A stretch of 64,000 bases of DNA from an uncultured Gemmatimonadales bacterium (GTDB taxonomy: Bacteria > Gemmatimonadota > Gemmatimonadetes > Gemmatimonadales > GWC2-71-9). The stretch's first letter is position 1. Every line of letters begins with the position of its first letter. This document shows, piece after piece, positions 45,087 through 60,013 of this stretch. The position numbers and the translations under genes are program-made. The stretch is from NCBI GenBank assembly GCA_963828735.1, contig CAWHFW010000005.1, positions 1,440,001 through 1,504,000 of the forward strand, written 5' to 3'. Under the pieces are notes generated by a model that had not been told where the DNA came from, did not search any database, and was given only the letters and a program-made list of their open reading frames with translations.

Positions 45087-45797
45087 ATGCCACCCACCAC
45101 CACCGCGTTCGTCACCGGCGCGACCGAAGGGATCGGTCGCGCCACCGCCTTCGCCCTCGGGCGCGCCGGCTTCGCCGTGGGCGTTTGCGCCCGCACGGCC
45201 AATCGGGTGGACGGGCTCGTCGCCGAGCTCCGCGCCGAGGGGATCGCCGCGGCGGGCGCCGCCGCCGATGTGGGCCAGCCGGAGGCCGTGACACGGGCGG
45301 TCGCCCACGTGTCCGAGGAGCTCGGCGAGATCGGGCTTCTGGTCAACAACGCGGGCGTGCTGATCGCTCGGCCGTTCGAGGAGCTGACCCTCGAGGACTG
45401 GGACACCACGATGGCCACCAACCTGCGCAGCCTCTACCTGGTGACGCGGGCCGTCCTCCCTGGAATGCGCCGGCGGCGCGAGGGCACGGTGGTGAACGTC
45501 GCGAGCCTGGCCGGCCGGAACGGCTTCGTCGGCGGAACTGCCTACACGGCCTCCAAGCATGCCGTGCTCGGCTTCGCCCGCTCGCTGATGCTCGAGGTCC
45601 GGAAGGAAGGCATCCGGGTGATCACGATATGCCCGGGCTCCGTGGACACCGATCTGCTCCGCGACCAGCCCATGCTCAAGTCCGATCCGCAGCGCATCCT
45701 TCAGGCGGACGATGTGGCGCAGGCCGTCGTCGACGCGGTCCGGCTCCCGTCCCGCGCCCTGGTCAGCGAGATCGACCTCCGGCCGACCAACCCGTAG
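45087..45797 (+). CDS. Short-chain dehydrogenase/reductase
   Basis: TGATEGIG, LVNNAG, S...YTASK, ICPGSVDT. Confidence 0.92.
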   Translation: MPPTTTAFVTGATEGIGRATAFALGRAGFAVGVCARTANRVDGLVAELRAEGIAAAGAAADVGQPEAVTRAVAHVSEELGEIGLLVNNAGVLIARPFEELTLEDWDTTMATNLRSLYLVTRAVLPGMRRRREGTVVNVASLAGRNGFVGGTAYTASKHAVLGFARSLMLEVRKEGIRVITICPGSVDTDLLRDQPMLKSDPQRILQADDVAQAVVDAVRLPSRALVSEIDLRPTNP

Positions 45798-45799
45798 CC

Positions 45800-46015
45800 G
45801 TGCCGGGCATCTTCGTCAGCATGTGCGTCTGTCGCCATATGCCATTCGAGCGGCTGCTGCCGCTCGCACGCGCCGGTGGTTGGGGACTCGACGAGATCGC
45901 CCGCGCGACCGGGTGCGGCGCGGGCTGCGGCCTTTGCCGCCCCTACCTGCGGCGGATGCTGGCCACCGGCGAGACCGAATTCCACGAGCTGCTGGTCGAG
46001 GATCACGACGCGTGA
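45800..46015 (+). CDS. BFD-like [2Fe-2S]-binding small protein
   Basis: CVC ... TGCGAGCGLCRPYL; GTG 2 nt after SDR stop. Confidence 0.8.
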   Translation: MPGIFVSMCVCRHMPFERLLPLARAGGWGLDEIARATGCGAGCGLCRPYLRRMLATGETEFHELLVEDHDA

Positions 46016-46124
46016 GCCGGCCGATTCGAATCCGGCGCCTCCTCGGCCACGGCCGTCTTCCAGTTCAGCTCCCTACCGAACGCCCGGTCCGCCACGTTTC
46101 GGTCGGCGACGCGGAATGAAGCCC

Positions 46125-46153
46125 TTGAACACTCAGGGCCGCAGGTCCACCTT
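46125..46153 (+). promoter_or_regulatory. Promoter implying a leaderless mRNA for RAPP leader 1
   Basis: TTGAAC-N17-CACCTT, ATG 7 nt after the -10 box. Confidence 0.5.
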
Positions 46154-46160
46154 TCAGCCG

Positions 46161-46499
46161 ATGCCATTCGGCCGCCTTCTCCGGCTGTTCCTCCTGGCCC
46201 TCCCGCTCACGCTGGGCATGGCCAGAGGCGCGGAGCATTCCCGCCCCGCGGCGGCCGATCCGGTCTCCACCATCAGCGCTCCGCGGGAATCGCTCCCGCC
46301 GCCGGTCCACGACGAGGCGACCTGCGCCTTCTGCCAGGCCGCCATTTTCCCGCCCTGCGCCCCACAGCCGACGACCGTCTCGCTCGACGCGCTCGGCGTC
46401 GTTCGCCAGGAGTGCGCCGCGGCCGACGAGGCCACGCCGCACTTCACTACCCACCGCCTCACCACCACCCGGGCACCACCTACGCTCCGTTCGGCCTGA
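46161..46499 (+). CDS. DUF2946-like leader protein (signal peptide, H-x4-CxxC, C-terminal RAPP)
   Basis: MPFGRLLRLFLLALPLTLG...HDEATCAFCQ...TTRAPPTLRSA*. Confidence 0.75.
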   Translation: MPFGRLLRLFLLALPLTLGMARGAEHSRPAAADPVSTISAPRESLPPPVHDEATCAFCQAAIFPPCAPQPTTVSLDALGVVRQECAAADEATPHFTTHRLTTTRAPPTLRSA

Positions 46500-46547
46500 C
46501 GCGCGCGCCCATTCCGGGCGCGCCACTCAACCGTACTCGGAGCGTCC

Positions 46548-47960
46548 ATGTCCGTCCGAATCCGGACGGTCGCCCTCCTTGCCTTCTGGCTGGGGGGGGC
46601 GACCGTCGCCAGAGCCCAGGTCCCCCGGGGTGCCACCGCTGATTCGGTGGCGCGAGGCCTGGGCCCGGCCGATTCGCTGGAGCTCACACTCAGGTCCGAC
46701 TGCGTGGGAGCGAACGCGGACACCACGACACCGGGATCCGCCGAGGTGCCCCGCGACCTGCTGTGCCTGACCCGCCAGCAAGCGATCGCTCAAGCGTTGG
46801 CCAAGAACCCCCAGCTCCAGGTGGCGGCTGAGCAGGTCGCCCAGGCGCACGCGCGAAAGGTCCAGGCCACTGCGATGCCTGACCCCCAGTTCGCCGCCGC
46901 CTTCGACCAATCGCAGGGCCTGTTCGGCGCCGGGGGCGCCAGCGAGCGGAGCCTCGCTGCGACCGTCACGATCCCGTTCATCGACAAGTTCCGACTGCAG
47001 GGCCGGGTCGGGACGGCGGACGTCCGCTCCGCCGACTTCTCCGCCGCACTGGTCCGGCAACAGCTCACCTCGGCGACTTCACAAACGTACGACTCGCTCC
47101 TCGCCTCGCTCCGCCGCGAGCGGGATCTGCGGGAGGCCAAGGCGCTGGCCCAGGACTTCGTGCGACGAGCGGAGGCGCGGTATAACGCCGGGACGACGCC
47201 GAAGCTCGACCTCGTGCGGGCGCAGGTGGAGCTGGCGCGGACCGAGAACGATCTCATCGGAAACGAGCGCGACGTGGCCAACGCGCGCGCGGCCCTCAAC
47301 CGGCTCGTCGGCCGTCCGCTCGGTGCCCCGATCGCCGCCGCCGATTCCCTGGGCGTGCCGCCGGCGCCGCCGGACCTCGACCGGCTCGTGGCCGCCGCCA
47401 TGGCCGCGCGGCCCGAGCTCGGGAGCCTGAAGAGTCAGGAGGCGGGCGCGCGCGCGGCCTCCGGACTGGCGCGGGAGTACTGGCTTCCCGATCTCACCGT
47501 CGGCATCAGCCATGATTACGCCGATCCCGGGCCAGGCTACATCTTCAGCGGCGTGTCGCTGCCGATCCCGCTCTTCTTCTGGAATCACTCGCGCGGAGAG
47601 ATCGCCGAGGCGCACCACCACGAGCTCGAGTTGGCAGCGGCGTACCAGGACCTCGAGCAGCAGGTGGGTCAGGACCTCCGCGCGGCCTATGCGGCCGCGG
47701 CCGCCGCCCTCCGCCAGGCCGTCTACATCCGCGACCAGATCCTCCCGCTCGCTCGCCAGGCCTACCACATCGCCTCCGTCAGCTATGGCCTCGGGGGCTC
47801 TTCGGCCCTGGACCTGCTGGACGCCCGGCGCAACCTGCTCGACGCGGAAAGCCAGTACACCGACGCGCTGGCGGCCGCCAACGATACCCGCGCGGAGCTC
47901 GAGCGCGCGGCCGCCACTCCGCTGGATTCGCTCGAGACCGGAGGCACCAATGACCGATAA
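46548..47960 (+). CDS. TolC family outer-membrane efflux protein (CzcC-like)
   Basis: Signal peptide; ALAKNPQL, ARYNAG....DLVRAQVE, SLPIPLFFWNHSRG, YGLGGSSALDLLDARR. Confidence 0.9.
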   Translation: MSVRIRTVALLAFWLGGATVARAQVPRGATADSVARGLGPADSLELTLRSDCVGANADTTTPGSAEVPRDLLCLTRQQAIAQALAKNPQLQVAAEQVAQAHARKVQATAMPDPQFAAAFDQSQGLFGAGGASERSLAATVTIPFIDKFRLQGRVGTADVRSADFSAALVRQQLTSATSQTYDSLLASLRRERDLREAKALAQDFVRRAEARYNAGTTPKLDLVRAQVELARTENDLIGNERDVANARAALNRLVGRPLGAPIAAADSLGVPPAPPDLDRLVAAAMAARPELGSLKSQEAGARAASGLAREYWLPDLTVGISHDYADPGPGYIFSGVSLPIPLFFWNHSRGEIAEAHHHELELAAAYQDLEQQVGQDLRAAYAAAAAALRQAVYIRDQILPLARQAYHIASVSYGLGGSSALDLLDARRNLLDAESQYTDALAAANDTRAELERAAATPLDSLETGGTNDR

Positions 47961-49104
47961 GCCCGCGCTCGGCTCGGCCCTCATGCTGGTCGCGGCCACC
48001 GTCGCCGCGTGCAGCGGCGGCTCGCGCCGGAGCGATCCCGGCGACAGCACCACAACCTCAGCGGGCCAGGTCGGCACGGTCGAGCTCGACACCGCGCAAC
48101 GCTCGCGGATTCACGTAGAGAAGGTCGCGCCAGAGACCTACAGGGCCAGCGTCACCACCACCGGCACGGTGGCCTTCAACGGCGACCGATCCACCCAGGT
48201 GATCGCGCCCATCTCGGGCCCGGTCTCGCGGATCCTGGTGTCGCCTGGGGCCCGAGTGGAGCGCGGGCAGCCGCTCGCGATCGTGTCGTCGCCGGACTTC
48301 GCCGAGGCGGTCGCCTCCTACCGCAAGGCCGAGGGCGCGTGGCGGAACGCGTCGCGCATCGCCAGCCTGGACGAGCAGTTGTTCGCCAACGACGCGCTGG
48401 CCCGGAGCGACCTCGACCAGGCCCGGACCGACCTGGCCGCGGCCACGGCGGATCGGGAGGCGGCGCTGTCGCAGCTCCGATCGCTGGGTCTCGACGAGAC
48501 GGCAATCGACGCCATTCGCGATGGCAAGTCGGTCTCGGCGGGCGAGAGTGCCGTCCGCGCGCCGATCGCCGGCACGGTGGTCGAAAAGCTCGTTACGCCC
48601 GGCCAGCTCCTGCAGGCGGGCGCCACGCCGTGCTTCACCATCGCCGATCTCTCCACGGTGTGGGTCATGGCCAACGTGTTCGAGAGCGACCTCGGCGCGG
48701 TCCGGCGCGGAGAGGCGGCCCTGATCACGACCAACGCGGCTCCCGACACCCTGCCCGGCCAGGTGGACTACGTCGCCGATCTGGTGGATCCGTCCACCAA
48801 GGCCACCGCCGTCCGCGTACTCGTACCGAACAAGGCGCGGCTGCTGCGGCGGGACATGCTCGTGCGGGTGACGATCCGGGGCCTCACGCCGAGCACCGGC
48901 CTCCTGGTACCGGTCGCGGCGGTGCTGCGGGACGACGAGAATCTCCCATACGTCTATGTGGCGTCGCCGGGCGGCTTCGCACGCCGGCGGGTGGACCTGG
49001 GCGGTCGGGTCGGTGACCGGTACGAGATCGCATCGGGGCTCGAGCCCGGCGAATCGGTAGTGACCGACGGGGCGCTCTTTCTCGAAGGCGCGTCCACCCA
49101 GTGA
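47950..49104 (+). CDS. RND efflux periplasmic adaptor (CzcB-like lipoprotein)
   Basis: Lipobox VAAC; APISGPV...GARVERGQPL, RAPIAGTVV, IADLSTVWV, GLEPGESVVTDGA. Confidence 0.9.
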   Translation: MTDKPALGSALMLVAATVAACSGGSRRSDPGDSTTTSAGQVGTVELDTAQRSRIHVEKVAPETYRASVTTTGTVAFNGDRSTQVIAPISGPVSRILVSPGARVERGQPLAIVSSPDFAEAVASYRKAEGAWRNASRIASLDEQLFANDALARSDLDQARTDLAAATADREAALSQLRSLGLDETAIDAIRDGKSVSAGESAVRAPIAGTVVEKLVTPGQLLQAGATPCFTIADLSTVWVMANVFESDLGAVRRGEAALITTNAAPDTLPGQVDYVADLVDPSTKATAVRVLVPNKARLLRRDMLVRVTIRGLTPSTGLLVPVAAVLRDDENLPYVYVASPGGFARRRVDLGGRVGDRYEIASGLEPGESVVTDGALFLEGASTQ

Positions 49105-52100
49105 GCGACATGCCGGACGTGCCGAGCCCGTCCACCACTACGCGCCGATCCTTCATCCACCGTATCGTCGCGCTTGCGCTCGCCCAGCCGGCGGTGGTGA
49201 TCGCCGGCGCCGCCGCCGCAGCGGCGGCCGGCGTGTGGGCGTTCTCACAGCTTCCGATCGACGCCTATCCAGACCTGTCGTCGCCGACGGTCGAGATCAC
49301 GACACAGTGGCCGGGCCACGCCGCCGAGGAAGTGGAGCGGCTCCTCACCGTGCCGATCGAGACCGAGATGAACGGGCTGCCGGGCCTGGACGTTGTCCGC
49401 TCGATCTCGTTGTACGGGCTGTCCGACGTCCGGCTTGTGTTCAAAGACGGCACCGACAACTACTTCGCGCGCGAGCGGGTGTTCGAGAAGCTGCGCGACG
49501 TGGACGTTCCCGACGGCGTTTCGCCCGACGTGGCCCCGCTGTTCTCCCCCTCCGGCCTGGTGTACCGCTACGTCCTGCAGAGCCCCGACCGCTCCCCCAT
49601 GGAGCTCAAGACGATCCAGGACTGGGTGCTGTCGAAGGCCTACAAGGCCGTGCCCGGCGTCGCCGACCTGTCGGGGTTCGGGGGCCAGACGATGCAGTAC
49701 CAGGTCGTCCTCGATCCGACCCGGCTCGCCGGCGCGGGCCTCTCGGTTCCTGCGGTCGCCGAAGCGCTGGGCTCGAACAACGGCAACGCGGGTGGAGGAT
49801 TCTACTCCGAGGGTGGGCAGTTCTATTACGTGCGCGGCCTGGGGCGCCTCCAGGTGCCCGAAGACATCGGCAAGGTCGTCCTCGCCGTCAAGAATGGCAC
49901 GCCGATTCTCGTGCACGACGTCGGCCAGGTCGTCATCGGGTACGCACCTCGCCTCGGACAGTTCGGGTTCAACGACCAGCCAGACGCCGTCGAAGGCGTC
50001 GTGCTGATGCGCACCGGGGAGCAGGCGCAGACCGTGCTCAAGGGCGTCGAGGCCGAGACCGCGAGGCTCAACTCGACCGTGCTGCCCAAGGACGTGCGGG
50101 TCGTGCCGTTCTACGACCGGAGCGACTTGATCCGGCTGACCACGCGGACGGTCGAGGGAAACCTGCTCCGCGGGATCGTCCTGGTGATCGCCGTCCTCAT
50201 TTTCTTCCTGTTCGACTTCCGGGCGGGACTCATCGTCGCCGTGACGATTCCGCTGGCCCTGCTGATCGCGTTCATCTGCCTCGACCTGCGCGGTGTGCCT
50301 GCCAACCTGCTCTCCATCGGCGCCATCGATTTCGGGATCCTCGTGCATGGCGCCGTCGTGATGGTCGAGAACATCTACCGAAGTCTGGCTCGGCGATACG
50401 GAACCGTGTACTCCATCCGCGAGGTCATCGCGGAGGCGTCCGCGGAGGTGGACCGGCCGGTGGTCTACGCCATCGCGATCATCGTCGCGGGATTCCTTCC
50501 GATCTATACGCTCTCCGGGCCCGCGGGCCGGCTGTTTCGGCCCATGGCGGACACGACCATCTTCGCGCTCGCCGGCGCCCTGGCGATGACGCTGACGCTC
50601 GTCCCGGTGCTCTGCGCCGTGTTCCTCCGGGGTGGCGTGCACGAGCGGCGAAACGTCGTGTACGAAGCCGTGCTTTCGGCGTACGCTCGTGCCCTGGACC
50701 GCTGTCTCGCCTATCCTCGCGCCACCGTCCTCGCCTCGGTCGGGCTGTTCGCCGCGGCACTGCTGCTGACCAGCGGCATCGGTGCCGAGTTCATGCCCCA
50801 TCTCGACGAGGGCGCGCTCTGGGTCCGGGCGACCATGCCCGCGACCATCTCGCTCGAGGAGTCGTCCAAACTCGTGCCGCAGTTCCGCCGCATCCTCAAG
50901 AGCTTTCCCGAGGTCACGGTGGTCGCGTCCGAGCACGGGCGGCCGGACGACGGCACCAATCCCACCGGATTCTTCAATGCGGAGTTCTACGTCGGCCTCA
51001 AGCCCTACGGCGATTGGCACGGCCGCTTTCACAGCAAGCCCGAGCTCATCGACGCCATGAACCAGAAGCTCTCCGTCTTTCCCGGCGTGAGCTTCAACTA
51101 CACCCAGCCCGCGGAGGATGCCGTCGACGAGGCCGAGACCGGGCTCAAGAGCGCGTTGGCGGTGAAGGTATTCGGTCCGGACCTCCAGGTGCTGGAGGCC
51201 AAGGGGCGGGCGATCGAACGGGTGCTGCACCGGGTGCCCGGCATGAGCCGGATTACCGTGGTGGAAGAGCTGGGTCAGCCCAGTCTCACACTCACCATCG
51301 ATCGCGACCGGATCGCGCGCTATGGCATCAACGTGGCCGACGTGAACGCCCTGATCGAGGCGGCAGTCGGCGGCGTCGCCGCGACCTCGGTGGTGCAGGG
51401 CGAGAAGTCGTTCGACCTGGTGGTCCGGCTGGAGCCCCGGTTCCGGGAGACGCCGGAGCAGATCGGCGAGATCCTCGTCGCGGCCCCGGACGGGCAACAG
51501 ATTCCGCTCCGGGAGCTCGCGACCATCGGTGTAAACAGCGGCGCGTCGTTCATCTACCGCGAGGACAACTCGCGGTATATCGGCGTGCAGTTCGCCGTGG
51601 AGGGACGGGATCTCGCGGGCACCGTGCAGGAAGCGCAGCGCGAGGTCCGGGCGGCTGTGCCCCTGCCGCCGGGGTATCAGGTAGTCTGGGGTGGGGAGTA
51701 CGAGGAGTACACCGCGTCGCGGACCCAGCTCGCGGTGGTGCTGCCGCTCACGGTCGCGCTCATCTTCGTGCTGCTGTTCGCCCTCTACCGGAACTTCAGC
51801 TTTCCACTGATCACGGTGATCGGGGTGGTGCTTTCCGCTCCCGTCGGCGGATTCCTCGCCCTCGCCCTCACCGGGACTCCGTTCTCGGTGTCGTCCGGCA
51901 TCGGCTTCCTGGCGCTGTTCGGAGTGTCGGTGCAAACCGCGGTGGTGTACATCTCCCACGCCAACGAGCTTCGCCAAGGCGGTGTGGCCATCGCCACGGC
52001 CGTGCATGAAGCCGCGCTGAACCGGTTGCGGCCCATCATGATGACGGCGCTGGTCGCCGCTTTGGGACTGCTCCCGGCGGCCGTGTCCACCGGCGTCGGG

Positions 52101-52229
52101 TCCGACTCGCAGCGCCCGTTCGCGATGGTCATCGTAGGCGGGCTGTTCTCACGACTCCTCATCAGCGTGTTCCTGATGCCCGTGCTCTATGCGTACGTCG
52201 CCAGGGAGAATGACCGGCTGGAGGTGTGA
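49101..52229 (+). CDS. CusA/CzcA family heavy-metal efflux RND transporter
   Basis: LPIDAYPD, AEEVER, SLYGLS, ANLLSIGAIDFG, LFRPMA, EFMPHLDEG, RLRPIMMTALVA, QRPFA. Confidence 0.93.
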   Translation: MSDMPDVPSPSTTTRRSFIHRIVALALAQPAVVIAGAAAAAAAGVWAFSQLPIDAYPDLSSPTVEITTQWPGHAAEEVERLLTVPIETEMNGLPGLDVVRSISLYGLSDVRLVFKDGTDNYFARERVFEKLRDVDVPDGVSPDVAPLFSPSGLVYRYVLQSPDRSPMELKTIQDWVLSKAYKAVPGVADLSGFGGQTMQYQVVLDPTRLAGAGLSVPAVAEALGSNNGNAGGGFYSEGGQFYYVRGLGRLQVPEDIGKVVLAVKNGTPILVHDVGQVVIGYAPRLGQFGFNDQPDAVEGVVLMRTGEQAQTVLKGVEAETARLNSTVLPKDVRVVPFYDRSDLIRLTTRTVEGNLLRGIVLVIAVLIFFLFDFRAGLIVAVTIPLALLIAFICLDLRGVPANLLSIGAIDFGILVHGAVVMVENIYRSLARRYGTVYSIREVIAEASAEVDRPVVYAIAIIVAGFLPIYTLSGPAGRLFRPMADTTIFALAGALAMTLTLVPVLCAVFLRGGVHERRNVVYEAVLSAYARALDRCLAYPRATVLASVGLFAAALLLTSGIGAEFMPHLDEGALWVRATMPATISLEESSKLVPQFRRILKSFPEVTVVASEHGRPDDGTNPTGFFNAEFYVGLKPYGDWHGRFHSKPELIDAMNQKLSVFPGVSFNYTQPAEDAVDEAETGLKSALAVKVFGPDLQVLEAKGRAIERVLHRVPGMSRITVVEELGQPSLTLTIDRDRIARYGINVADVNALIEAAVGGVAATSVVQGEKSFDLVVRLEPRFRETPEQIGEILVAAPDGQQIPLRELATIGVNSGASFIYREDNSRYIGVQFAVEGRDLAGTVQEAQREVRAAVPLPPGYQVVWGGEYEEYTASRTQLAVVLPLTVALIFVLLFALYRNFSFPLITVIGVVLSAPVGGFLALALTGTPFSVSSGIGFLALFGVSVQTAVVYISHANELRQGGVAIATAVHEAALNRLRPIMMTALVAALGLLPAAVSTGVGSDSQRPFAMVIVGGLFSRLLISVFLMPVLYAYVARENDRLEV

Positions 52230-52290
52230 GCCCTGTGCTCTTCGCCTGGAATTACCTAGACCGTCACTACGCGCGCGTGGCTGGAGCCGT

Positions 52291-52626
52291 TTGACCGTGC
52301 TCGCCCGGGTCCGCGCCTGGCTCCTTCTCGCGCTCTTCCTGGGCGCGGGCACCAGCCTGCCGAGCGCGGACGCGCTGCTGCACCACCAGCATCCCGAGCC
52401 GTTCCGGGTGCACTACGACCCGGCCGGCGGGTGCGCCGAGCACGCGGATCACTGCACGCTGGGCCGCACGCCGCCGGGCTCGAGGGCGGTGGCGCCGGTC
52501 ATGCTCGTGGTCCGTGTCGGACCGAACAAGCCGTCGCATGCCATCCGCACCCCGTCCGCGCAACTGTTCGATGCGCGGACCTCCTTCCTCCCTCCGTCCC
52601 GAGCTCCTCCGGCGCCGCCGATCTGA
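52291..52626 (+). CDS. DUF2946-like leader protein 2 (signal peptide, His/Cys cluster, C-terminal RAPP)
   Basis: RVRAWLLLALFLGAG...HHQH...HYD...CAEHADHC...PPSRAPPAPPI*; start TTG 52291 or GTG 52297. Confidence 0.72.
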   Translation: MTVLARVRAWLLLALFLGAGTSLPSADALLHHQHPEPFRVHYDPAGGCAEHADHCTLGRTPPGSRAVAPVMLVVRVGPNKPSHAIRTPSAQLFDARTSFLPPSRAPPAPPI

Positions 52627-52705
52627 CGGGACCTCCCGTCCGAACATCGCGGCTCCCCGGGCGCACCCATGCGCCGGGGTCATGCTCCCTGAACCGGAGG
52701 CTCGA

Positions 52706-54979
52706 ATGGTTACGCTGCTTCTGGCGGCGGCGCTTGCCGTCGCCGCGGGTCCGTCGCGGGCGGCGGCGCCCGCGCCTGCCGCCGTGCTCACCGGCACCGT
52801 CACCGACAGCGCCGGCGCCCCACTGGCCGACGTCCGAGTGCACGTGCCCGAGCTTGGGCGCGGAACGACCACCGACGCCGAGGGCAGGTTCACGCTGCCC
52901 CAAGTGCCGTCGGGCACCTACGAGGTTGCCTTCTCCCGCATCGGCTATGCTCCGCTCGTCCACCGAGTCACCGTCGGCGTTCAGCCCGTGATCCTCGCGG
53001 TGTCGATGCACTCCTCGGCCGTCGAGCTGCCGGAGGTGCAGGTGACGGCCACCCCGAATGCCACCACCGCGCTCACATCTCCCCAGCCGATCAGCATCCT
53101 CGATCATGACAACCTGCGGGTCGCGCAGGCGCCGTCGCTCGGCGAGACGATCAGCGGACTCGCCGGCGTCCACAGCATCAACCAAGGCCCGGCGATCGGG
53201 AAACCGGTCATCCGGGGCCTCAGCTCGAGCCGCGTCCTCGTGCTCGACAACGGCCAGCGCATCGAGACGCAGGGCTGGGGTGACGAGCACTCGCCCAACA
53301 TCGAGACGGCCGACGCCGAGCGGATCGAGGTCATCCGGGGGCCGGCGAGCGTGCTGTACGGCTCAGACGCGCTCGGTGGCGTGGTCAACGTGGTGAAACG
53401 CGACCTGCCGGACGCGATCGGGCGAGACCCGCTCTTCCGCGGCGCGCTTTCGGTCGCGTACAGCACGAACAACCAGCAACCCGAGGGGACCGCGCAGGTC
53501 GATGGGGCCACGGGCGGGCTCGGCTTCCGGGCGTCGGTCACCGGCAGGATGAGCGACGATTTCACCACCCCGGTAGGCGACGTGTTCAACACCGGCAACA
53601 GCGCGGTGGCCGGGAACGGCTCGGTGGGCTACCGCGGGAGCTGGGGGTCGGTGCGTGGTGACTTCGTGTACCGCGACGAGAAGCCGGAGCTTCACGACGA
53701 CGCAACAGCGACGCCATTCCAGCGCATCGGCGACACTCGCGCCGGAATCAGCGCCAACCTCCCGATCGGCCAGTCTCGCCTCGAGGTGATCACGGGGTTC
53801 GAGCGAAACCGCCGGCGGGAGTTCGAGGAGGCCGGCTCCGAGGAGGTGGCGTCTGGCCTGCTCGCCAGCAGCTTCAAGGCCGACGCCCGGTTCCATCACG
53901 AGCCCCTCGGCCGGCTCACCGGCCTCGTGGGCCTGCAGGCCTTCTTCGACGACTTCACCGTGTCCGGGGTGGACCAGCACCTGATCCCGAGCAATCAGGC
54001 ACGGAACGTCGGAGTTTACGCCTTCGAGCAGCTCGACATCGACCGCTGGACGCTCTCGTTCGGAGCTCGCTACGACTACCGCCGGCTGGACGTTACCGCG
54101 GACCCGCCACCGCCGATCGGCACGGGAACGCCCGCGCAGGCCCGCACGTACAGCTCAGTGGTCGGCAATTTCGGCGCGCTATTTCACGTGAGCGAGCCCG
54201 TCGCGCTGGTGGTCAACGTCGGACGCGGCTTTCGGGCACCGCAGCCGATCGAGCTGTTCGCCAACGGTGTGCACGAAGGGACGATCCAGTACAGCGTCGG
54301 GAACCCGGAGCTCGAGAACGAGACGTCGATCAACACCGACTTCGCTGTCCGGGTCCAGAGCGAGAGGGTGAGCGCCGAGCTCGGTGCGTTCGGTAACTTC
54401 ATCAACAACTACATCTACTTCCGGCCGACCGGGACGTATGACTCACCCTCGGGCGGGTTGGAAGATCCGTGCTCGAATCCCGACACGTTCTCCTGCTTCC
54501 AGAAGTTCCAGGCGGTTCAGGGCGACGCCCGCCTCGCCGGCTTCGAGTTCTCGGCCGAGTACCACCCGACGCCGTACCTGCACCTAAGCGGTACGGCGGA
54601 CTACACCCGCGGCCAGAACCGCTCCGTCGACCAGCCGCTCCCGCTGGTGCCGCCGTTCCGCGCGACCTACGGCGCGCGGTTCGAGGGCAAGGGCAACCGC
54701 ACCTTCCTGAATCCCTATGTGTCGGTGAGTGGCGAGACCAACGCGCAGCAGACGAAGCTCGATCCCGACGACTTCGCGCCTCCCGGATACACGCTGGCCA
54801 ACGCTGGCGCGGGAGTCGGACTGACCGCGGGCGCTCGGGTAGTCAATATCGACGTGACTCTCCGGAATGTATTCGACAAGGAGTACCAGACCTTCCTGAG
54901 CCGCTACAAGTTCGCGACGGATCCCATCGTCCTGGATCCGGGCCGTAACCTGACGATGCGCATCAGCACGGATTTCTGA
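52706..54979 (+). CDS. TonB-dependent receptor (likely divalent-metal uptake)
   Basis: GGAGG SD; carboxypeptidase-regulatory-like N domain; GKPVIRG, QGWGDEH, IEVIRGPASVLYGSDALGGVVNV, ELFANGVHEG, C-terminal F. Confidence 0.93.
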   Translation: MVTLLLAAALAVAAGPSRAAAPAPAAVLTGTVTDSAGAPLADVRVHVPELGRGTTTDAEGRFTLPQVPSGTYEVAFSRIGYAPLVHRVTVGVQPVILAVSMHSSAVELPEVQVTATPNATTALTSPQPISILDHDNLRVAQAPSLGETISGLAGVHSINQGPAIGKPVIRGLSSSRVLVLDNGQRIETQGWGDEHSPNIETADAERIEVIRGPASVLYGSDALGGVVNVVKRDLPDAIGRDPLFRGALSVAYSTNNQQPEGTAQVDGATGGLGFRASVTGRMSDDFTTPVGDVFNTGNSAVAGNGSVGYRGSWGSVRGDFVYRDEKPELHDDATATPFQRIGDTRAGISANLPIGQSRLEVITGFERNRRREFEEAGSEEVASGLLASSFKADARFHHEPLGRLTGLVGLQAFFDDFTVSGVDQHLIPSNQARNVGVYAFEQLDIDRWTLSFGARYDYRRLDVTADPPPPIGTGTPAQARTYSSVVGNFGALFHVSEPVALVVNVGRGFRAPQPIELFANGVHEGTIQYSVGNPELENETSINTDFAVRVQSERVSAELGAFGNFINNYIYFRPTGTYDSPSGGLEDPCSNPDTFSCFQKFQAVQGDARLAGFEFSAEYHPTPYLHLSGTADYTRGQNRSVDQPLPLVPPFRATYGARFEGKGNRTFLNPYVSVSGETNAQQTKLDPDDFAPPGYTLANAGAGVGLTAGARVVNIDVTLRNVFDKEYQTFLSRYKFATDPIVLDPGRNLTMRISTDF

Positions 54980-55045
54980 CGTGCCTTGCTTCATCGCGCG
55001 ACGTGGCCGAGCCGCACGACTTGAGGGCCGCTGTCCGCCTTGCCG

Positions 55046-56572
55046 TCAGCGGACCTTCTTCCAGCCGGGCAGGTAGGGCGGCACCAGCAGCGCAGTCCGC
55101 CGCAGCAGCTCGAGGTGGGACGCGACGATGTCCGCGAGCTGCTGCGCCGCGCAGAGATGTGCCTCGCGGAGGATGGCCGGAGGCTTCGCGGTGAGAACCA
55201 GCGCACCGTGGATGCGCCCGGCCACTCGAAGCGGCACGAGGAGGCGCGCTTCGTCCTCCACGAGCTGGAACGAGTTGGGCAGCTCGCCCAGAAGCACACG
55301 GGCCAGCGTCGTTCCCCCGACCGGAATCAGGGGCAGATCCGGCAGAGGCCGGCGCTCGCCGGGCTCCAGGAGCACCACGCGATCGCCCTCGCTCAGCCGG
55401 ATCGCGAAACGCATGTCGTCGAACGGCAGGATGCGCGCCGCCAGGTCCGCCACCCGGCGCGTCGTGTCGGCGAATTCGGTTCCGGTCGCGAGCATCTGCG
55501 CGGCGTCGAGGAGGCTCGGACCCGGAGGCGAAGACGCGACCGGCGGCTGAGCCGGTGACGCGGCCCCGACCAGCATCGTCACTTGCGCCGCGATCAGCCC
55601 ACCGACGCGTCGAAGCAACTCGGCGTCGACCTCACTGTACAGATCCGCGCCGATGCCGCCGGCGAGGAGATAGGCAACCAGCCCGCCCAGCCCGCAAACC
55701 CGCGTGCCCACCACGGCGCGGAGCTCCGCGCCGACCGGCTCCTCCACGGTGAAGTAGCCTCGAGGCCAGTGGGGATCCTGGTAGCTGTCCGCGATGACCA
55801 CCGTCTCGCGATCACCGAACAGCGCGGCGAGATCGAGGTGTTCGCGTCCGATGACGAGGGATGGGTCGGACCAGAGTGCCCCCGCCGAGTGCTCGCCCAG
55901 CCGGTAGGCGCGCGTCCCATTCGCGTCCGCCAGCAGAAGCTCGAGGTGATCGTGCGGCAGCACCTGGTCCAGCGCCCGCCCGAGCTCCGTGAGATAGAGC
56001 TGCGGCGAGCCGGCGTGCGCGCCGGCGTAGGCCACCGCGTCCACGAGCGCCGCGATGCGCGTCGCCTCAGGCGCGTGATCGGGCGAGGCACTCCACTGTC
56101 TCGCCATCCGCCCGAGCATCGGCGCGAGCCGCTGCGCGGCGACGTCGAGCAGGAGTCGCTCCTCCTCGCCGTACTGCTCAGGCCGCAGGTCCGCCGCGAG
56201 AACGAGCCCGACGTCGCGCCGGCCGGACCGAACCGGCGCGCACGCCACCGAGCCGTAGCCGGCCTCCCGCACGACGTCTTCCAGCAGCCCGACCTGCGAG
56301 CGCTCGAGCTGCGGGGTCGGCAGCGGAACCGAGAGGTCGTCCTGAGCCAGCGCCTCCGGGCCGAGCAGCACCGCGCCGCCGTGCAGCGGATAGAGCCAGA
56401 CTCCGAGCAGATCGTGCGGGAGGTCGGGGGCGAGCGCGTTTGAGAGCGCAGAGTGCCAGGTGGCGAGCGCGTCGGGATCGGCCAAGCCCTGCTCGGCCCG
56501 CAGCAGGGGCACGAGCGGTTCGCCCCTGGGTGCGGGGTCTGGATGGCGAGGACTTGGTGGATCCGGGGACAT
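55046..56572 (-). CDS. Multi-GAF-like domain protein without recognisable output domain
   Basis: Three repeats of LP(H/F)D.. followed by GAF-like xxP(L/V)R..GR..G(L/A)(L/V)L segments; start may be GTG 56512. Confidence 0.7.
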   Translation of the reverse strand: MSPDPPSPRHPDPAPRGEPLVPLLRAEQGLADPDALATWHSALSNALAPDLPHDLLGVWLYPLHGGAVLLGPEALAQDDLSVPLPTPQLERSQVGLLEDVVREAGYGSVACAPVRSGRRDVGLVLAADLRPEQYGEEERLLLDVAAQRLAPMLGRMARQWSASPDHAPEATRIAALVDAVAYAGAHAGSPQLYLTELGRALDQVLPHDHLELLLADANGTRAYRLGEHSAGALWSDPSLVIGREHLDLAALFGDRETVVIADSYQDPHWPRGYFTVEEPVGAELRAVVGTRVCGLGGLVAYLLAGGIGADLYSEVDAELLRRVGGLIAAQVTMLVGAASPAQPPVASSPPGPSLLDAAQMLATGTEFADTTRRVADLAARILPFDDMRFAIRLSEGDRVVLLEPGERRPLPDLPLIPVGGTTLARVLLGELPNSFQLVEDEARLLVPLRVAGRIHGALVLTAKPPAILREAHLCAAQQLADIVASHLELLRRTALLVPPYLPGWKKVR

Positions 56573-56585
56573 ACACTCCCCGGGG

Positions 56586-56600
56586 GCAGGAGGTATGCCG
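56586..56600 (-). promoter_or_regulatory. Possible sigma54 promoter for GAF gene
   Basis: CGGCATACCTCCTGC (GG-N10-GC) on minus strand with IHF-like CAA-N4-TTG at 56631-56640. Confidence 0.4.
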
Positions 56601-56757
56601 TCGGTAGCAGGTTGCGATGTCCATGGGCGGCAACAACTTGTGGCTTCTCGGCTGACGGTGTGGCACGCGTGAGCGCCTCGTTCGTGGCGTCCTGCCCGCC
56701 TCCGTTGCAGGCTGCTTCCGGGACGTCTGGAGGCGGAACCCTAGATAGGACGCCACG

Positions 56758-56787
56758 TTGACATACCCCTACCCCCTATATTAAGCT
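56758..56787 (+). promoter_or_regulatory. cop operon promoter with CsoR-type operator in the spacer
   Basis: TTGACA-N18-TAAGCT; ATACCCCTACCCCCTAT (C-tracts flanked by ATA/TAT). Confidence 0.65.
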
Positions 56788-56821
56788 CCCTTGCATCCCC
56801 TCTCGCCCCCGGAGCACGCGG

Positions 56822-57031
56822 ATGCGACATCTCACCCTCCATATCGAAGGCATGAGCTGCGGCCATTGCCTCAACGCGGTCAATCGAGCGCTCGCAGGGC
56901 TGCCTGGCATCGAGATCGAATCGGTCACCATCGGGCGGGCAAACTTGCGCTACGACGAGCGCACCATGGACTCCGAGCGCATCGAAGCCGCGGTCACCGA
57001 AGCGGGATATCGGGCCACGGGCGTGTCATGA
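56822..57031 (+). CDS. copZ: Copper chaperone (HMA domain)
   Basis: [15 protein letters not shown]; 69 aa. Confidence 0.9.
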
Positions 57032-57411
57032 CCACCGCGCAGCTCGCCGTCACGTTGTTGGGCCTCGCGGCCATCGCGTGGGTCAACTGGTACTTCTTCA
57101 TCGCCGGTCGTCGCGCGGTGACGGCAGACGTCGAGCGCGGCGGAGCCCAGCGCGTGCGCATCGAGGTGAAGGGCGGCTACACCCCCGCGGTAATTCGCGT
57201 CCGTGCCGGCTCTCCCGTCCGCCTCGATTTCCACCGCGACGAGACCAATCCCTGTACCGAGGAGGTCGTCCTTCCGGCCTTCGGAATTCGCACGTTTCTC
57301 CCGGCCCATCGAACCACGTCGGTGAGCTTCACGCCCGGCGAGGGGAAGTTCGAGTTCGCGTGCGGCATGGGCATGGTGCGAGGGACTATCGTCGCGGAGA
57401 AGGTCGAGTAG
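57028..57411 (+). CDS. Membrane-anchored cupredoxin-domain protein (CupA-like)
   Basis: ATGA overlap; N-terminal TM ending [20 protein letters not shown]. Confidence 0.88.
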
Positions 57412-57413
57412 AC

Positions 57414-59681
57414 ATGTCGGACGCCCTGACCGCTTCGACCGATTCCTGCACCATCCCGGTCACCGGGATGACCTGCGCCGCGTGCAGCAGCCGGGTGCAG
57501 CGGACGCTCGAGCGCACGGACGGAGTTTCGTCGGCCAACGTCAACCTCATGACCGGCGCGGCGACGGTCGCCTACGATCCGTCGGTAACATCGCCCGAGC
57601 GCCTGGTCGACACCATTCGCGGTACCGGGTACGGGGCGCAATTGCCGCTGCCGAACGAGTCGAGCGAGGCGCTCCTGGACGCCCAGGACGCCGCGCGCGC
57701 CGAGGAGGTGCGCGATCTGCGCGGCAAGTTCGCGCTCGGCGCGACGGTCGGCCTCGGCATCATGGCGCTCGCCATGACGCCCACCGGCTCGGGCGATATC
57801 GGCCGCTATGCCGCGCTGGCGCTCACGCTGCCGGTGGTCGGCTGGGCGGGACGGCATTTCTACACGCGCGCGTGGGGCGCCTTCCGGCACCACGGCGCCG
57901 ACATGAACACGCTGATCGCTGTCGGCACCGGAACCGCGTTCGTCTTCAGCGCCGTCGTGACGGTGTTCGACGACTGGTTCGCCGCCCACGGGGTCGAGCC
58001 GCACGTGTACTTCGAGGCGGTGGTGTGGATCATCGCGCTCGTGCTGCTCGGGAACCTGCTCGAGGCCCGGGCGAAGGGTCAGACGTCCGGCGCCATCCGT
58101 CGGCTCATCGGCCTGCGTCCGGCGACGGCACGTGTGCTTCGCGACGGGCGAGAGGAGGACGTGCCGCTCGCGACGCTTCGAGTCGGCGACGAGGTGCTGG
58201 TCCGCCCCGGCGAGACTGTGCCCGCCGACGGCACCATCGTCGACGGCGCGAGCAACCTGGACGAGAGCATGCTCACCGGCGAGCCGATGCCGGTGCCGAA
58301 GCGAGTCGGCGACCGGGTGATCGGAGCCACGCTCAACCGGAACGGAGCGTTCCGGTTCCGCGCCGAGCGGGTGGGGAACGCGACCGTGCTTTCGCGGATC
58401 ATCCGTCTCGTGCAACAGGCGCAGGGCAGCAAGGCGCCGATCCAGCGGCTGGCCGATCGCATCTCGGCGGTGTTCGTCCCCGTGGTGCTGTCGATCGCGA
58501 TCCTGACGTTCGTCGTCTGGTTCGACCTTGGGCCCGCGCCGGCCTACTTGCACGCCCTCGTGTCCGCCGTGACCGTGCTCATCATTGCCTGCCCCTGCGC
58601 CATGGGGCTTGCCGTCCCGACGGCGGTGATGGTCGGAACGGGACGCGGCGCCGAGCTCGGGGTGCTCATCAAGGGCGGCGAGCCGCTCGAGCGGAGCCAT
58701 GCCCTCGACACGATCGTCTTCGACAAGACGGGGACGATCACCGAGGGCCATCCCGCGGTACAGGCGGTCGAGCTCGCCCCCGGTAGTGGCGTCGCGAGCG
58801 AGGCGGACCTCCTCGAGCTCGCCGCGGCGGTCGAGCGGCTCAGCGAACATCCGCTGGCCGACGCGATCGTCGCGGAGGCCGAGCAGAGGGAACGGGCCGC
58901 GGGTCGCGCGACCGACTTCGAGAGCCGCACGGGCAAGGGCGTGCTCGGGACGGTGGCCGGGCGCCGGCTCGCAGTCGGCAACCTCGCCCTCATGAGTGAT
59001 CTCGGCGTCGAGGTGGGTGCTCTCGCGGCTCGAGCCGAGGCATTGGCCACGCTGGGATGGACTCCAGTGTACGTTGCCGTGGATGGCGCACTGGCCGGCA
59101 TCGTCGCGATCGCGGACCCGGTGAAACCCACCAGCGGGAAAGCCATCGCCGAGCTGCGTCGCCTTGGCCTCGAGTCGATCATGCTCACCGGCGACAGCCT
59201 TCGGACGGCGGAGAGCGTCGCGCGGAGCGTCGGAATCACGCGCGTGCTCGCCGAAGTGGCGCCGGACCGGAAGCTGGATGAGATCGGTCGCCTGCAGGCG
59301 GAAGGCCGCGTGGTCGCCATGGTGGGCGACGGCCTCAACGACGCGCCCGCCCTCGCGCGTGCCGACGTGGGCATCGCGATGGGCACCGGCACCGACGTGG
59401 CCATCGAGGCCGGCGCGGTCACGCTGATGCGCGGCGACCCGCTCGGCGTCGTGACCGCCATCCGCCTGGCCCGGACGGTCATGCGAGTCGTCAAGCAGAA
59501 CCTGTTTTGGGCGTTCGTCTACAACGTGATCGGCATTCCGGTGGCGGCGGGCGTTCTGTATCCGGCGTTCGGTCTCCGCCTCACGCCGGCGATGGCCGCG
59601 GCCGCCATGGCCGTGAGCTCGGTGAGCGTCGTGTCCAACAGCCTGCGGCTTCGCCGCTTCACGCCCGGAGGTGCGTCATGA
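57414..59681 (+). CDS. copA: Cu(I)-translocating P1B-type ATPase
   Basis: GMTCAAC, TGE, IACPCA, DKTGT, SEHPL, GDGLND, YN, MAVSS. Confidence 0.95.
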
Positions 59682-60013
59682 GTCTGCCCGTCGCCCCTTG
59701 CGCTTGTGGCCGTCCCGGGGATGGGACCCATGCCGTGGCGGTGGATCCCGAGATCAAGCGCGCGGTGCTCACTCGGCTCCGGCGCATCGAAGGCCAGGTG
59801 CGCGGCCTGCAGAAGATGGTCGAGGAGGAGCGGTACTGCGCGGACGTACTCATGCAGGTGTCGTCGGCGCAGGAGGCGCTCCGGGGTGTGAGCCGCTCGC
59901 TCCTGCACAATCACCTGAAGCATTGCGCCGCCGAGGCGATCCGCTCGGAGGATCCCGCGCAGTCGGAGGCGATGTACGAGGAGCTGCTGGACCTCGTGTT
60001 CCGGGCGCGGTAA
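59678..60013 (+). CDS. csoR: CsoR family copper-sensing repressor
   Basis: [25 protein letters not shown] (C-H-C ligands); ATGA overlap with copA. Confidence 0.9.

Follow-up and report, generated by a model that had tools for sequence, protein, structure and literature searches.

Analysis of the window (the whole stretch of 64,000 nucleotides of Gemmatimonadales DNA studied here) identified, directly upstream of a gene for a TonB-dependent receptor, a small leader gene that is real, conserved and, judging from comparison of homologous sequences, under codon-level selection; it appears to work like CruR and CutF, with RNA wiring of the SecM type. The class of systems is already published, as are its ingredients, namely RAPP leaders in front of TonB receptors (CruR; EMBO J 2025), His-only variants, and stems that mask the Shine-Dalgarno (SD) sequence. 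In the reading that we consider probable, a leader of the CruR/CutF type would stall the ribosome on RAPP codons that are complementary to the SD of the receptor gene, the stall would free this SD, and metal bound at a His-x3-Cys site would shut the receptor off. The features of the locus are listed in Table 1.

Table 1. Features of the leader-receptor locus and of the preceding efflux operon (positions in the window)
Feature	Position	Strand	Basis or remark
First RAPP leader, H-x4-CxxC, heads efflux operon	46161..46499	+	RAPP at 46470-46481
Heavy-metal efflux genes	46548..52229	+	profile searches
TolC-type gene	46548-47960	+	
CusB-type gene	about 47950-49104	+	
CusA/CzcA gene	49101-52229	+	TIGR00914 above cut-off
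Leader ORF, 109 aa, CruR/CutF-type architecture	52297..52626	+	ORF, 57 homologous loci
Basic, then hydrophobic N-terminus of leader	52297..52368	+	conserved alignment pattern; helix 2-30 in model
Candidate metal ligands D25, H30, H39, C46, H49, C53	52369..52455	+	homolog alignment
Stretch of 60 nt rich in C (30) and poor in G (12); candidate site for Rho loading, like that of cruR	52550..52609	+	
RAPP arrest-motif codons CGA GCT CCT CCG	52600..52611	+	motif conservation
Anti-SD CCTCCGG (two Pro codons + one base)	52606..52612	+	exact complementarity, fold, codon tests
Inner hairpin 1, overlapping stop codon	52625..52640	+	fold; no consensus over 18 loci
Inner hairpin 2	52655..52679	+	fold; no consensus over 18 loci
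Receptor ribosome-binding site, CCGGAGG then CTCG	52694..52704	+	sequence
TonB-dependent receptor, 757 aa, ZnuD-like	52706..54979	+	profile and alignment

Conservation of the leader and its candidate sensor

At E<=1e-100, a search with the receptor gave matches in 124 of the order's 401 genomes, a tally that includes G090, the DNA of which was left out. We examined 115 Gemmatimonadales loci, 5 from the first search for relatives and the best 30 plus 80 of the remaining receptor matches; once two duplicates and a locus lacking upstream DNA had been set aside, 57 distinct loci had the leader ahead of the receptor gene and 55 more distant ones did not. In these 55 loci, a leader ending in Pro-Pro (an NGPP-type ending was sought) was not found either; an RPPP match in L134 was dropped as the end of an ordinary gene. 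Of 251 genomes searched in the order, 124 contain matches to the leader profile, often several each. The proposal that this is a RAPP leader, made previously from the letters of the window alone, is borne out by its conservation: in the alignment of the 54 intact sequences (three of the 57, with broken or cut N-termini, were left out), Arg102, Pro104 and Pro105 are invariant and the Ala is retained in 51. Because RAPP-like tetrapeptides are common by chance in the window (dozens across its six frames, at a GC content of 69.5%), the motif counts only through this conservation. In the window leader, RAPP is followed by four codons, APPI, and by the TGA that ends at 52626, 79 nt ahead of the receptor ATG at 52706.

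The coordinates of the leader and the position of RAPP in the earlier note stand, with the exception of the start codon: the in-frame TTG at 52291 that it had chosen is the alternative, and the GTG at 52297 is the likelier start because ATG or GTG occupies the equivalent codon in L002, L035 and L003. The N-terminus may function as a signal peptide or membrane anchor, as its sequence pattern suggests. The AlphaFold model of the leader has a pTM of 0.29, too weak for a fold search.

The most conserved part of the putative metal site is a single pair of residues, His49 (53 of 54 leaders) and Cys53 (54 of 54), which in the window form the motif H-x3-C-T-L-G, without CXXC; among the homologs, CxxC occurs in four of the 54 leaders and CxxH in six. 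The other candidate ligands are less conserved (D25, 40/54; H30, 40/54; H39, 42/54; C46, 19/54). It had been suggested that the sensor is a C-x6-C arrangement in a His-rich setting, but this spacing is found in only 19 of the 54 leaders, so C-x6-C was rejected as the sensor; the His motifs HHQH and HYD, singled out at the same time, are kept only in part among the homologs. An alignment of homologous leaders, which the earlier note had called for, revealed a nearly fixed distance between H-x3-C and RAPP, 46-49 residues in 55 of the 57 leaders. In the window leader, Cys53 lies 48 residues ahead of the RAPP Arg. In CruR, 45 residues separate CXXC from RAPP, that is, 48 from the first Cys (PMC9426467), so that Cys53 holds the place of the first Cys of CruR; the first RAPP leader of the window also has its first Cys 48 residues ahead of RAPP.

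Pfam and NCBIfam gave zero matches for either RAPP leader of the window; a DUF2946 search, also called for beforehand, left the window leader unmatched by PF11162 at E<=1 and gave weak matches for 12 of the 54 homologs (best E 0.0012), and one look-alike cluster in the Atlas is 11% DUF2946. When the profile of the leader family was compared with the first leader of the window, only the RAPP end aligned (probability 0.8%). Among the 120 of 214 protein matches listed, none carries an informative name. The CutF-like class is defined by rules, namely a length below 150 aa, Pro-Pro within 15 residues of the end, a same-strand gene within 1,000 nt, a cleavable Sec signal peptide and a Cys/His motif; the window leader has 109 aa, Pro-Pro at 104-105, a gap of 79 nt, a basic and then hydrophobic N-terminus of conserved pattern, and the putative metal site with His49 and Cys53. 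It is probably a member of this rule-defined class, and falls outside strict DUF2946. Five RNA runs shared less than one tenth of the sequence words, and the three that were assembled yielded short pieces from relatives, none of them spanning leader and receptor.

Complementarity of the RAPP codons to the receptor SD

The base pairing proposed from the sequence proved exact in both its letters and its coordinates: CCTCCGG and CCGGAGG (52694-52700) are perfect reverse complements of each other, and CGAG (52600-52603) is complementary to CTCG (52701-52704), with a 2-nt bulge. Across the 330-nt leader, CCTCCGG is the only perfect 7-mer complement of the SD region.

To judge the codon choice, we compared the RAPP codons with several controls. 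The first Pro codon of RAPP is CCT in 39 of the 57 loci and CCC in two; 18 leaders lack CCT at this position. In Ala-Pro-Pro sequences of 1,620 genes of this genome, the share of CCT is 8.3%; in the leaders themselves, CCT accounts for 36 of the 547 other Pro codons and is found in 9 of the 52 other Pro-Pro pairs; and in the receptor genes (56 of the same loci), the share of T does not exceed 27% at any of 166 fourfold sites. If GCT-CC is also counted, CTCC is present within the Ala-Pro-Pro codons of 46 of the 57 leaders. Free synonymous variation of the RAPP codons, named in advance as an outcome that would refute the proposed switch, is therefore not what the homologs display. Slow decoding is an unlikely cause of the preference for CCT because the second Pro codon, the one expected in the A site, is CCT in only four of the 57 leaders. 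Coding regions are, in general, depleted of sequences that resemble an anti-SD (PMC12697547), which makes their retention here more telling.

The complementarity is also specific to the partner. With receptor starts chosen by a script rule (SD strength and hydrophobicity), the mean duplex energy between leader and SD is -14.5 kcal/mol for native combinations vs -12.4 kcal/mol for permuted ones, and the native duplex is stronger than the swapped one in 18 of the 25 informative pairs among 28 tree-independent pairs (Wilcoxon p=0.008); with a segment upstream as the control, the native combination is favoured in 15 of 26 pairs (p=0.18). Core columns carry no information on covariation because they are fixed by the anchoring; among the 15 columns included in the test, one is significant, with the second Pro wobble covarying with the base before GGAG (16 of 37 Watson-Crick pairs vs 8.4 expected; p=0.002, uncorrected). 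The Arg codon CGA is weakly associated with TCG after the SD (p=0.04).

The minimum free energy and centroid folds of 52580-52730 both contain a long helix between RAPP and SD along with the two gap hairpins of the earlier note, which are thus recovered (-70.2 kcal/mol; z -3.09; none of 200 shuffles reached so low an energy). RNAalifold did not find a consensus structure in 18 aligned loci of the 57, and the named helix in these 18 loci is modestly above shuffles (covariation, 23/500; paired cells, 54/500); Rfam covariance models gave no matches at E<=1 across 45500-57500. In the predicted folds of the 57 loci, the SD is paired with the RAPP codons in 27 and with the codons just after RAPP in 16, so the view that the RAPP codons themselves mask the SD applies to the former group and has to be widened for the latter; both sets of codons would be under a stalled ribosome. 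The probability that the SD is paired with the RAPP region exceeds 0.5 in only 33 of the 57 loci, and when the upstream RNA is left free to refold, there are only three loci in which blocking the ribosome footprint makes the SD more open by over 0.3.

We then calculated the cost of opening the initiation region, with the segment covered by the ribosome and everything before it removed. For the window, the computed cost falls from 16.2 to 8.8 kcal/mol without the 34 nt that would lie under a stalled ribosome; the mean drop over the leader loci is 3.0 kcal/mol vs 0.6 for an upstream control segment. Against a background of 120 genes of this genome, sampled from 311 eligible ones, a drop of at least 7.4 kcal/mol is seen in two and the open value of 8.8 is reached by 4%; the closed state is ordinary for the genome, with 36% of the genes equally closed. 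Synonymous recoding is predicted to lower the cost from 16.2 to 13.3 (first Pro codon only) or 11.5 (four codons). Taken together, prediction and comparison point to an SD-masking stem under the stalled ribosome and support the view that the RAPP codons are under codon-level selection toward SD complementarity.

The receptor, its sister groups and the other targets

The best solved relative of the receptor is ZnuD (E 3e-29; the next, 7e-15), and the closest named relatives are from Gemmatimonadales. Receptor residues E194, H195, E374 and H523 align with Asp99, His100, Glu340 and His499, the four high-affinity zinc ligands of ZnuD from Neisseria meningitidis (PMC4557270), if the chain and paper numberings differ by a constant offset of 14 residues, as we infer. 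The histidines of WGDEH and NGVH, previously taken as marks of a divalent-metal receptor, are among these aligned positions, and in the leader-bearing receptors the four positions are occupied by E/D (56/56), H (56/56), E (48/56) and H (55/56). Thus, in sequence, the receptor looks like an importer of a divalent metal. It differs from ZnuD in scoring far below the cut-off of NCBIfam NF038289 (135.6 bits vs 950) and in having an extra N-terminal domain; furthermore, control of ZnuD is exerted on the DNA, by Zur.

A hint at the sign of control comes from receptors without the leader. The palindrome TTAG-N6-CTAA, described as a DtxR site (10.1101/2025.03.07.641123), is present in 22 of the 24 closest leaderless receptor loci fetched vs none of the 57 leader loci; one of the other two has a copy with one mismatch and one lies behind an Nramp gene. 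The 31 receptors at the greatest distance likewise lack the box. A divergent gene adjoins the box in four loci, and the one that was tested is of the DtxR family; in the genome of the window, the box occurs twice, once upstream of an MntR-like gene followed by mntH. Such either-or occurrence of leader and operator in sister receptors is a rare hint of the sign of control: a DtxR/MntR-type operator in the leaderless sister group points to an importer that is shut off when metal is sufficient. Receptors with the leader and those with the operator form separate groups in the receptor tree, with low support (0.27 and 0.69, respectively), and no direction of replacement is claimed because of this weak support. 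The position of Glu374 is E in only two of 18 operator-bearing sister receptors, so the metal of the operator group may differ from that of the leader group.

The leader of the window follows an efflux operon that ends 67 nt ahead of it; neither a sigma-70-like promoter nor a terminator consensus was found in 52000-52750. Between 2 and 5 kb downstream are genes for a copper-type P-ATPase and a cupredoxin. Among the 57 leaders, 12 are directly behind an ABC-3 metal permease gene, and four leaders behind efflux genes were seen in longer loci. Leaders of this family also precede other genes: 51 further targets comprise another class of TonB receptors (25), porin-like proteins (19), ZnuD-like receptors (4) and TolC-type proteins (3), the porin-like gene belonging to a type that precedes a gene of the ZnuA family. 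(We assigned the labels 'porin-like', 'sensor kinase' and 'ApbE-like' by reading the sequences; they are not the output of a tool.) The genome to which the window belongs, 97.5% complete, yielded no gene of the ZnuA family. The opening effect is repeated in 41 of the 51 further loci, those with clear starts (3.4 vs 0.6 kcal/mol), where the duplex permutation test gives p=0.004; CCT is weaker at leaders of other targets (17/50; TolC-homolog leaders, 10/28). Among 28 leaders before TolC homologs, 20 have CxxC, seven lack it and one is mixed, so that the His type also serves efflux; given that TolC/efflux operons, which are headed by CxxC-less leaders as well, would be expected to be on with metal, the leader motif leaves the sign unfixed.

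Proposed mechanism, alternatives and known systems

Under the preferred reading, the leader would be translated and, at low metal, the ribosome would stall on the Pro-Pro codons, presumably with the two codons in the P and A sites by analogy with CruR, ApdA and ApdP. The stalled ribosome would cover the anti-SD codons and leave the SD free, so that the receptor is made; binding of metal to the nascent His-x3-Cys site just beyond the exit tunnel would release the stall, whereupon the last leader codons would pair with the SD and turn the receptor off. Activity at low metal is suggested by the genomic context. As for the metal, zinc is the leading candidate, although somewhat short of an even chance; manganese or iron come next at a clearly lower level, and copper and all other metals trail equally. 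The earlier idea of tuning to nickel or cobalt is unsupported, the context favouring zinc, manganese or iron.

The closest parallel is CruR (Bp2923, DUF2946/PF11162), which precedes the TonB receptor BfrG in Bordetella pertussis (PMC9426467) and whose arrest, with the second Pro in the A site, has been demonstrated (PMC12992588). The two share a small leader of exported type, a C-terminal RAPP, a Cys 48 residues earlier, a C-rich stretch and a TonB receptor downstream. Unlike CruR, the family described here mostly lacks CXXC, precedes a ZnuD-like rather than a copper receptor and belongs to a different phylum; the gap is 79 nt in the window vs 162 nt in cruR; and CruR, which acts by way of Rho, encodes its RAPP with frequent codons, in contrast to the rare codon that is retained here and pairs with the SD.

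Control could be mainly transcriptional, as in CruR: the stalled ribosome would shield a C-rich Rho site and release by metal would lead to Rho termination before the receptor, with the SD pairing secondary or serving to uncouple translation for Rho. We consider this unlikely as the main mode of control, although CruR-type termination may act, alone or in addition, because both a C-rich stretch and a rho gene are present. The excess of C over G spans 52510-52690 and recurs in the homologs (50% C and 21% G on average in the 36 nt ahead of RAPP), and CruR works in this manner, its Rho site containing Pro codons of the rare CCT type (PMC9426467). However, a Rho site predicts neither T at the wobble position of the first Pro (39/57, with CCC in 2/57) nor partner-specific complementarity, and the gap is short (median of 83 nt vs 162 nt in cruR).

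CutF, which precedes cutO in Rhodobacter capsulatus, combines a signal peptide, a Cys/His site, a proline-rich end and an SD-masking stem opened by stalling (10.1101/2022.11.11.516240 = PMC9973294); the window leader has a signal-like N-terminus, a putative Cys/His site, a proline-rich end and a predicted SD-masking stem. The stem of CutF is described as intergenic, whereas here the 5' arm consists of the arrest codons, and copper turns the target on, whereas the target here is an importer-type receptor; clusters of CutF-like leaders with His-only types and TonB neighbours have been described (10.1101/2025.02.05.636593; PMC9973294). The sign could therefore be the opposite one, metal binding outside the membrane prolonging the stall and turning the gene on, possibly with copper and jointly with the efflux operon. 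The position of the leader behind the CusA/CzcA operon, with no terminator found in 52000-52750, makes such a sign possible, and the leaders that head efflux operons, the opening of the SD stem in CutF on copper binding (10.1101/2022.11.11.516240) and the copper-type genes downstream agree with it. We nevertheless regard it as improbable, in view of the importer-like receptor, the metal-dependent repressor site of the sister group and the ABC uptake genes, which precede more leaders (12/57) than do efflux genes (4, in longer loci).

The combination of a signal-like N-terminus and RAPP is also the design of ApdA, ApdP and SecM, and all targets found are exported proteins, so the leader might monitor export, its His and Cys being structural. 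This is very improbable: the target classes that can be named handle metals or lie within operons that do, and the distance to the putative stall site is fixed for His49 and Cys53, both of which are nearly invariant. The pairing as a mere by-product of Pro-Pro codons, which resemble an anti-SD anyway in GC-rich DNA (CCN CCN gives four of its five bases, and RNAalifold found no consensus over 18 loci), is largely refuted by a free wobble T eight times commoner than in the genome and by the advantage of native pairs over swapped relatives (18/25).

The wiring that we favour, in which arrest codons form the anti-SD arm, has a precedent in design because secM folds in this way onto the secA SD: in the computed fold of Escherichia coli K-12 secM-secA, the arrest Pro codon and the codons next to it pair with the secA SD region. 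SecM differs in sensing export, in its RAGP motif and in having no metal site. The leader further resembles the 'TonB-related' RAPP/RGPP class of signal-bearing leaders before TonB receptors across Gram-negative phyla (PMC12992588), in the main text of which we found no mention of an RNA mechanism, codon analysis, zinc or Gemmatimonads. In the open-access literature searched, we found nothing on these Gemmatimonadales leader genes, on RAPP leaders that respond to zinc or manganese or on RAPP codons being selected for an anti-SD role (see also PMC10987492 and PMC7897499).

More tentatively, the leaders might form a ribosome-run regulon of metal uptake in Gemmatimonadales, in which His-x3-Cys leaders would sense zinc or manganese and, by means of stall codons that also serve as the anti-SD, gate both ABC uptake operons and ZnuD-like receptors, in place of the DtxR/MntR operator of the sister receptor group. 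In the literature that we found, an action on such leaders has been shown for copper alone; if this possible regulon is real, it would include the first arrest-peptide sensor for a non-copper metal in that literature. The His-x3-Cys RAPP leaders thus offer a compact test of whether nascent-chain sensing extends to zinc or manganese. They also allow a test of whether selection can act on a single pair of codons both as the stall site and as the arm of an RNA switch.

Metal genes and the first RAPP leader in the window

The genes just downstream of the ZnuD-like receptor (Table) make up a metal-homeostasis cluster. At the first RAPP leader, the predicted fold pairs the Shine-Dalgarno site of the TolC gene with codons that follow RAPP, not with RAPP itself; among loci of TolC homologs, 28 of 29 carry a leader.

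Table. Metal-related features of the window
Feature	Position	Content
First RAPP leader region, including gap	46161-46547	H-x4-CxxC; 5' of efflux operon
Downstream metal genes	56791-60013	cupredoxin-domain gene; heavy-metal P-type ATPase gene; small ORF, presumably CsoR-like

Further targets of the leader family, and RGPP-ending ORFs

The most common other target of the leader family is a second class of TonB receptors (L252, L256, L262 and 21 related loci), in which the plug motif GEVHIRGQHAEY is conserved. An exported protein of about 460 aa is encoded 3' of the leader in loci L250, L260, L265, L272, L275-L277, L282-L284, L286, L288-L291, L294, L296, L301 and L303; it resembles the product of the gene preceding a ZnuA-family protein in L003/L005, ends with GPHKHETY in L250, and yielded no Pfam match and no NCBIfam match among 6 tested. 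This protein is possibly an unnamed outer-membrane metal channel.

Small ORFs ending in RGPP were also observed. One, in the genome of the window (contig C2, ~40046, minus strand), lies 5' of a gene for a 116-aa exported protein containing an HLHGY motif, and His-rich RGPP leaders are found at Bacteroidota relatives of the receptor (8 loci: L006, L007, L012, L022-L025, L027), two of them with CCT as the first Pro codon.

Several loci are irregular: L001 contains two Shine-Dalgarno-plus-ATG sites, 100 and 169 nt downstream of the leader, with a short ORF starting at the nearer one; the receptor frame of L003 (also L043) is broken after 135 codons; the leaders of L076 and L078 appear to be frameshifted close to the N-terminus; and L127-like fragments were grouped with L003/L043, L076 and L078.

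Operators of the leaderless sister receptors

The genome of the window contains a second exact TTAG-N6-CTAA (contig C6, 117146), flanked by genes for a prepilin-peptidase-like protein and an unknown membrane protein, which may be a chance occurrence. A CobW/COG0523-type GTPase gene (L189:2249-3313) is located 3' of one sister-group receptor. Among the leaderless sister loci (L088-L111), 22 of 24 possess TTAG-N6-CTAA, a DtxR/MntR-type operator, 5' of the receptor start, frequently in tandem copies; the operator-bearing sister receptors are TonB receptors and candidates for regulation by manganese or iron.
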